A DNA stretch of 63,028 nt, counting the filler, from Collodictyon triciliatum (Eukaryota), in assembly GCA_043381765.1 (NCBI GenBank). It is 55 parts of 55 records of this genome, joined end to end, with 100 filler letters (N's around TTAATTAATTAA, not from the genome) between each part and the next. Parts side by side here need not be neighbours in the genome. Positions count along the whole stretch, not along the records: positions 5,764 to 6,815 come from JBHJMP010012515.1; 54 more parts are not named here. One strand, given 5' to 3'. Positions 6,345 through 6,815 of this stretch are shown in pieces. A program made the translations under genes and the position numbers. Each line of letters starts with the position of its first letter. Position 1 is the stretch's first letter. The notes below the pieces were generated by a model that saw only the letters and a list, made by a program, of their open reading frames with translations, did not search any database and was not told the origin of the DNA.

Positions 6345-6815
6345 ATGAAGAAAAGAAAACACCTTGAGTCTGAGAGTTTAAAGTCTGTAAAACCAGACCA
6401 TCCGAATGTGAAAACATCTCGAAAGTCGATTGTAAAGAATGCGAATGACTGTGACGAAATCAACGATACGGTTTTATTGTGTCATAATTTGGTTACCGGC
6501 ACTTATCTGTTTGCAAGATGTTACGTATTGAAATCACACCTCCCAACAATCGATGCTATGTTTTTTTCGTACGCTTTAAAGCAGTCGGAATAGTTTCACA
6601 GGATAGACCCGCAAGTTAAAAAAAACCAGAAATGAGCAATGACATGATGATCTTTTTATCTCAATTATTTTCTATTCCTTTTGACCCGAGAAGAATGCTT
6701 TCCGTTGGTTAGACTGTCTCATGTATCACCGTACTTGGCGAAGCAAATGTTAACAGCTTATCATAATAGCATTAAGGAACATTTTGTAAAGAGGTTACTG
6801 CGCTTTATAAATCAA
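6345..6815 (+). pseudogene. Fanzor (eukaryotic TnpB-family RNA-guided nuclease) N-terminal fragment, frameshifted and cut by the contig end
   Basis: Restoring frames gives KPDHPNVKTSRKSIVKN..EINDTVLLCHNLVTGTYLFARCYVL..LPTIDAMFFSYALKAVG..GRPAS*KKPEMSNDMMIFY..LSHVSPYLAKQMLTAYHNSIKEHFVKRLLRFIN. This follows the motif order of giant-virus/protist Fanzor N-termini as I recall it (KxSLKSI; YxFxRLY; LPxID; GRP; YLAxxMxTxxxNxIKEHF; RFIN). The RuvC domain is not on the contig. Confidence 0.75.

Follow-up and report, generated by a model that had tools for sequence, protein, structure and literature searches.

A broken 5′ fragment of a Fanzor1 nuclease gene in the Collodictyon triciliatum assembly, and its intact relatives on viral contigs

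The stretch of DNA studied here (the window, 63,028 bases) consists of 55 contigs of the Collodictyon triciliatum assembly, each 1042–1065 bp in length, ordered by length and joined artificially via N/TTAATTAATTAA linkers. The contigs are physically unlinked, so that the neighborhood of the Fanzor1 fragment across the linkers has no meaning, and the Fanzor1 finding is confined to one contig of ~1 kb at positions 5764..6815. On the plus strand this contig has a leader (5764..6344), followed by an ATG at 6345 and the first part of a Fanzor1 gene, which is cut short at 6815 where the contig stops. Fanzor1 is a eukaryotic and viral RNA-guided RuvC endonuclease of the TnpB type.

In the frame of the ATG, the sequence from 6345 to 6815 has 157 codons with four stops, TAG at 6591–6593 and TGA at 6633–6635, 6645–6647 and 6648–6650. 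We placed the lesions by frame-aware alignment to four homologous proteins (P0002, P0003, P0004 and P0007), giving three coding segments, all on the plus strand. Segment A (6345..6581) comprises codons 1–79 in the ATG frame and begins MKKRK. It is followed by a −1 frameshift at 6582..6583, where a codon has lost one base and two are left; the alignments with P0002, P0003 and P0004 agree on this position, and that with P0007 moves the shift to 6591. Segment B (6584..6649) has 22 codons, and here it is the shifted frame, not the ATG frame, that fits the homologues. It contains an in-frame TAA at 6617..6619, where both P0002 and P0003 have leucine. One surplus base at 6650..6651 makes a +1 frameshift, and segment C (6651..6815) regains the ATG frame for 55 codons until it is ended by the contig. 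A stretch of 70 bp takes in the one-base loss, the TAA and the one-base gain, and the second shift undoes the first. When the fragment is read across the shifts, 97 of 156 aligned residues are identical to P0002. The preliminary description had reported open reading frame pieces joined by frameshifts and one TAA that together give about 150 amino acids, and the alignment bears this out, with 157 codons from the ATG at 6345. The fragment is thus not an open reading frame, which affects its function, not its ancestry. Given these three lesions the sequence is very probably a pseudogene, and the earlier view of it as a dead copy fits them well.

The N-terminus is basic, with MKKRK at codons 1–5 and four lysine or arginine residues in the first 12. 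For comparison, 37 database relatives have a median of 4 such residues and the 80 viral ORFs (the best 80 of 460) a median of 5, and the MKKRK stretch may be called NLS-like, a feature common to the relatives.

A word-indexed search of longer proteins gave three relatives among 137 candidates. The best, P0002 (648 aa), matches the one-frame read-through with 54% identity over the whole length (E = 1e-41). Across the shifts the identity is 60–61% to P0002 and P0096, and the best partial matches are P0009 and P0005 with 76% and 74% identity respectively. A phmmer search of the read-through against 1.84 billion proteins returned 90 matches at E ≤ 1e-3, 12 of them at E ≤ 1e-10, the best having E = 2.9e-19. 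Many of the 90 are 620–760 aa in length, and the matched part is always their N-terminus. On alignment by hhalign with a profile of 25 full-length relatives, the fragment peptide fell within the first 160 columns; the match covers 154 columns and has a probability of 99.7% (E = 2.4e-26). The E-values of both searches are far beyond chance, so that a chance match is excluded.

The relatives are Fanzor1 proteins. In phmmer P0002 matches the solved Fanzor1 chains 9CER (2e-28), 9CF0 and 8GKH, which are the proteins of Guillardia theta (GtFz1), Parasitella parasitica (PpFz1) and Spizellomyces punctatus (SpuFz1) respectively; these are remote matches (E = 2e-28 to 4e-23) that align locally, in two or three stretches per chain. 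The 25-sequence profile aligns with SpuFz1 from end to end, matching 8GKH at 5e-98 over profile positions 4–618, followed by 9CF0 at 2e-92 and 9CER at 6e-72. These top three matches in the PDB are all Fanzor1, and with this profile there is no TnpB or Fanzor2 chain in the PDB at E ≤ 0.01. The zinc-ribbon and RuvC-III part of the profile weakly matches LaTranC (0.0016–0.0022). On its own the fragment has GtFz1 as its top match in the PDB; the match is weak (E = 0.036), and it lies at the place where P0002 aligns, with segment C corresponding to residues 532–565 of the GtFz1 chain. A Pfam scan of the pieces and the read-through gave no family, and PF26935, which is precomputed for the homologues, was absent from the Pfam scan made here.

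The full-length relatives have the active site of a RuvC nuclease. All 25 in the profile have D364, E555 and D604 (P0002 numbering), and the consensus has CxxC...CxxC; PF07282 (Cas12f1-like TNB) is found in 21 of the 25, with a best E of 2.4e-10. The signature of Fanzor1 is given as DPG...E-x6-[CH]xxC...C...RDxxxxxN in the available text of 10.1101/2023.08.09.552727. Of 37 full-length relatives in the databases this strict pattern fits 25 and misses 12, and of the 80 viral ORFs (the best 80 of 460) it fits 79 and misses one. In common with Fanzor1 the relatives have the DPG, the C-terminally shifted RuvC-II glutamate, RDxxxxxN, a CxxC...CxxC ribbon and a basic N-terminus. The preliminary description had taken the piece to be Fanzor-like, a view that turned on profile similarity to Fanzor and on RuvC in full-length homologues. 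Both are present, in that the profile that ties to the fragment matches 8GKH, 9CF0 and 9CER, and the D-E-D residues are conserved throughout. Since the relatives are Fanzor1 and the fragment aligns to their N-terminus, it corresponds to the first quarter of a Fanzor1 gene, the part for the N-terminal WED/REC domains. By comparison with Fanzor1 it has codons 1–157 only, and those broken. The RuvC site, zinc ribbon and guide RNA of this copy would lie off the contig beyond 6815, as ascribed from the relatives.

The leader (5764..6344) appears to be non-coding. It has no Rfam match, no tRNA and no significant fold (z-score −0.10), and neither the inverted nor the direct repeats in it, all short, are convincing. 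It contains a 74-codon ORF (5947..6171, plus strand) that is probably not a gene, and the enclosing frame has no Pfam match. We saw no remnant of a DDE_3 transposase in the leader or elsewhere in the window. The leader is found in other sequencing runs as contigs that are 85–99% alike, and positions 5833–5958 are missing in some copies of the repeat.

No public run contains more than 8% of the 31-mers of the contig. At a likeness of at least 85%, comparison of four public runs with the contig gave 161 similar pieces in one (X3) and 43 in another (X1), mostly 90–95% alike. Because these pieces cover all 30 bins of the contig including the leader, the contig is one copy of a multi-copy repeat. 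It is repeated as a whole and no element end lies on it; evidence for a carrier transposon comes from the terminal inverted repeats (TIRs) and DDE_3 transposases of the viral relatives described below. In all six X3 contigs that cover position 6618 (all the X3 depth) and in one X1 contig the base is T, giving the TTA leucine codon as in P0002, while three X3 contigs, which account for 24.8 of a depth of 60.3, and one X1 contig lack one base at 6651. Because related copies differ at these positions, two of the three lesions, the TAA and the +1 base, are limited to a subset of copies. The X3 run is tentatively assigned to RNA and is probably cDNA. Among its loose ends are a poly(A) behind 6010 and one that resembles what we take to be a template-switch oligo. 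The summed contig depth in X3 exceeds 700 in a peak at leader positions 5980–6051, where two contigs end in the poly(A) behind 6010, and a joint in X3 connects 5832 to 5959 with GT..AG ends. These features hint that the leader of some copies gives rise to a separate transcript, spliced or polyadenylated.

We found no relative of the fragment, intact or otherwise, on the other 54 contigs of the window. A tblastn search with 33 full-length queries gave 32 matches, all inside 5764..6815, and blastn found only the contig itself. The GC content of the 55 contigs varies from 0.20 to 0.55, and more than one organism may be present among them. The other contigs look eukaryotic and messy, with microsatellites, a reverse-transcriptase zinc-finger piece, RING, and Sel1 and pentapeptide repeats, and no window contig has an Rfam family. 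A 348-codon frame at 34503–35546 (minus strand), open throughout, encodes a low-complexity run rich in lysine and, after it, a zf-RVT domain (E = 1.7e-6); it is a fragment of a non-LTR retroelement. On the contig that follows the Fanzor1 contig there is an open frame of 340 aa at 6918–7937 (plus strand) with no Pfam match. By language-model features its nearest clusters are the major capsid protein of large eukaryotic DNA viruses (PF04451) and a virophage V20-type capsid, with scores of 0.95–0.97; recognition is low and these serve as leads only. A 255-aa ORF at 44995–45759 (plus strand), bounded by TAA and with no Pfam match, has viral hypothetical-protein clusters nearest to it (scores 0.97–0.98, again leads only); DUF5901 occurs in 14% of the members of one of these clusters and V18-19 in 17% of those of another. 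The capsid-like ORFs are language-model look-alikes, and both they and the DNA viruses that the preliminary description proposed as possible movers of the element lie on other contigs, physically unlinked to the Fanzor1 fragment.

Relatives of the fragment are abundant on viral contigs. The exact words of P0002 found no viral locus, and only one metagenome locus (L001, 21% identical), which was unused. A search with an alignment of six sequences matched 579 stretches on viral contigs, 460 of which encode relatives, so that the general link of this Fanzor1 clade with viruses is real. Many of the best 80 of these lie on contigs named GVMAG, with lengths up to 289 kb. The flanks of these 80 encode ribonucleotide reductase, topoisomerase IA, XPG, RNase III, SNF2 and ERCC4 proteins. 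All figures that follow on loci, ends and RNA rest on the best 80 of the 460. Every one of these 80 ORFs is open, with lengths of 577–637 aa; individual motifs were counted in 79, 77, 80 and 80 of them, and the CxxC...CxxC expression was matched in 80 of 80. They are only 35–40% identical to the fragment. At an identity of at least 70%, 72 of the best 80 fall into a single cluster.

Comparison between copies defines the ends of the viral units. On the right, similarity stops 80–89 nt past the stop codon in 1360 of 2436 pairs, and on the left it stops 380–460 nt upstream of the ATG in 599 pairs. The ends are 24-nt TIRs that co-vary. Both TIRs were found at 59 of the 80 loci (the best 80 of 460), forming 35 short units, 33 of which span 2356–2455 bp, and 24 long units of 3.0–6.3 kb. 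The termini are TA...TA in 34 of the 35 short units and the flanks T...A in 28, and as the TA termini are palindromic a target-site duplication is indistinguishable from the outermost bases of the TIR. The short units, of ~2.4 kb, are non-autonomous (L016:4527-6911 and 34 other loci of L010–L081), and in 33 of the 35 an ORF of 84–116 aa lies between the left TIR and the Fanzor gene. This leader ORF is conserved and highly charged and has no Pfam family, and neither the 5947..6171 ORF nor the leader of our contig is related to it (best E = 0.3–0.4). At 24 of the best 80 loci there is a DDE_3 + HTH transposase of the IS630/Tc1-mariner type within 2.5 kb upstream, typically just inside the left repeat in divergent orientation. 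We saw no TnpA-type partner near the relatives.

The 3′ region of the viral units comprises the last ~170 nt of the ORF plus ~85 nt to the right end, and the predicted RNA structure ends in the right TIR. Three helices are paired in 99.5% of 1468 cells (61 viral relatives), a somewhat flattering figure since the helices were drawn by hand and eye from the same related sequences. Double changes are seen at 9 of 25 helix pairs (57 cells); this was equaled in none of 500 shuffles, and controls in which the pairing was slid reached at most 7 cells. The terminal helix uses G-U pairs. RNAalifold applied to the gappy 3′ alignment gave 13 pairs only. We regard the structure as guide-RNA-like, a candidate omegaRNA or fRNA. 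The region contains GC-rich hairpin-like insertions within its otherwise conserved sequence at two loci (L033:3691-3950 and L038:6710-6969), and in L079 and L080 the second hairpin is enlarged, with compensatory changes.

These properties may be compared with those of described systems. In the available text of PMC10432273, Fz1 is found in protists and giant viruses. That of PMC10530073 links Fanzor1 to Mariner/Tc1 and other transposons and describes N-terminal NLSs and an fRNA that overlaps the TIR; the guide-RNA-like structure of the viral relatives similarly ends in the right TIR, as described for Fanzor fRNA and reRNA. Solo-Fanzor1 units with TIRs that carry a three-stem reRNA are described in 10.1101/2023.08.09.552727. 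As far as its available text goes, the SfAV type is a non-autonomous TIR unit with a Fanzor1 of ~600 aa alone and an reRNA of about three stems that includes the TIR. It is reported to insert at TTTAN with duplication of TTAN, whereas the viral units here end TA...TA with mostly T...A flanks and differ further in the additional leader ORF of 84–116 aa. An endogenous giant virus of Chlamydomonas is reported, in the portion available of 10.1101/2024.09.03.611062, to have elements with Fanzor plus IS630-Tc1-Mariner, together with Fanzor-only and degraded forms, and there is a Fanzor fragment in the host chromosome. The viral relatives are alike in having both long (24) and short (35) TIR units, with DDE_3 at 24 loci. 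The host–virus pair of Chlamydomonas is 80% alike at the nucleotide level, while the fragment is 35–40% identical to the viral ORFs. The TnpB proteins of IS200/IS605 and IS607 and Fanzor2 belong to the same superfamily (RuvC and the zinc ribbon PF07282), and their guide RNA comes from the element's 3′ end. Unlike those systems, the relatives have a transposase of the DDE_3, IS630/Tc1-mariner type.

Taking these observations together, we hold with considerable confidence that 6345–6815 is the 5′ quarter (157 of ~650 codons) of a pseudogenised Fanzor1, a copy of a multi-copy family borne by a DNA transposon, and cut by the contig end. The gene would have been inactivated by the loss of one base, a nonsense change of TTA to TAA and the gain of one base. 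Judged from intact relatives, the complete element should encode a nuclease of ~650 aa with a basic N-terminal stretch for nuclear targeting, the WED/REC part, a RuvC site of the DPG...E...RD form and a zinc ribbon. Its guide RNA, a structured one, would be made from a stretch that begins in the 3′ end of the gene, crosses the right TIR and continues into the flank, and would lead the nuclease to cut DNA that it matches. Movement of the unit would depend on a DDE transposase of IS630/Tc1-mariner type, encoded in the element or acting in trans. This mechanistic picture is taken from viral relatives that are 35–40% identical to the fragment, and we infer it for the fragment's own family by analogy.

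The contig might come from a giant virus in the sample, or from an integrated giant-virus element, and not from a cellular chromosome. The abundance of the clade on viral contigs (460 stretches, up to 289 kb), the typical large-virus genes in the flanks and the capsid-like look-alikes on other window contigs, which are leads only, all speak for this, and the endogenous giant virus with Fanzor1 elements and a host-chromosome fragment (as far as described in 10.1101/2024.09.03.611062) provides a published parallel. We nevertheless think it unlikely. The nearest viral ORFs are just 35–40% identical to the fragment, and the word patterns of P0002 found no viral locus. With more than 160 diverged pieces, one small run points to a genomic repeat of high copy number, and the fragment is broken where all of the best 80 of 460 viral copies are open.

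A second possibility, to which we give a rather low probability, is that the gene is intact in the organism and that the assembly, which is poor and much fragmented, introduced the shifts and the stop in error. The contigs are of ~1 kb throughout, the +1 shift offsets the −1 shift within 68 nt, the remaining codons of the 157 are clean, and near-identical copies are 'repaired' at two of the three sites. Against this, the TAA is a substitution and not a length error, and one X1 contig, with 3.7 of the 9.35 depth units, seems to retain the A at 6618. Some 35 of the 60 units of X3 depth are without the deletion at 6651, and other copies thus seem to have the extra base too, a point against an explanation by assembly error alone. 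The copies are also 5–15% apart, as in decaying repeats.

It is highly improbable that the host reads TAA as a sense codon, such that the TAA would be no lesion. One X1 contig that is 88% alike may carry the TAA too, and reading through TAA and TAG opens frames in several contigs. Yet the frames so opened are low-complexity or non-coding with no convincing protein, and the virus-like ORF of 255 aa is bounded by TAA. A ciliate-type genetic code was rejected on these two grounds. Moreover TTA stands at the site in six of six X3 contigs, and both frameshifts would persist in any case.

It is scarcely credible that the piece comes from TnpB or Fanzor2, for which there is the shared superfamily and the weak LaTranC match, or that the ORF arose by chance, given that the top three PDB matches at 1e-72 to 1e-98 are Fanzor1, that it is the N-terminal region of the fragment that aligns to Fanzor1 chains, and that the phmmer and hhalign results exclude chance. 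Membership of TnpB or Fanzor2 was likewise rejected on the transposases of the relatives, which are DDE_3 + HTH.

Returning to the pseudogenised Fanzor1 copy, it could belong to a still-active, high-copy family in a eukaryotic host, a suggestion that we make tentatively and regard as doubtful. Several features point toward it. The identity to the nearest database relative is ~60%, and the family has its own conserved leader of at least 450 nt with neither a transposase nor a small ORF. Coverage of copies in the probable cDNA run is deep, some copies having leucine in place of the TAA and some lacking the extra base, and that run also has the template-switch-like and poly(A) loose ends.

In itself the fragment adds little. 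It is a decayed and truncated copy from a nuclease family whose activity, structure, links with transposons and presence in giant viruses are already published. The recognition of a Fanzor from ~150 broken codons is confirmed, having stood after testing. The value of the fragment is as a pointer to the subgroup of P0002 (648 aa, ~60% identical), of which there are many near-identical copies in public runs. This subgroup is related to a very abundant giant-virus clade of Fanzor1 (460 stretches on viral contigs), which has clear TIR units flanked by TA, some autonomous and others not, and a covarying RNA at the 3′ end. It is the intact relatives and not the copy in the window that are the material for new guide RNAs or target motifs. 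If the family is indeed still active, its intact members would carry an uncharacterised guide RNA and target motif, and could mark a recent exchange between host and giant virus.
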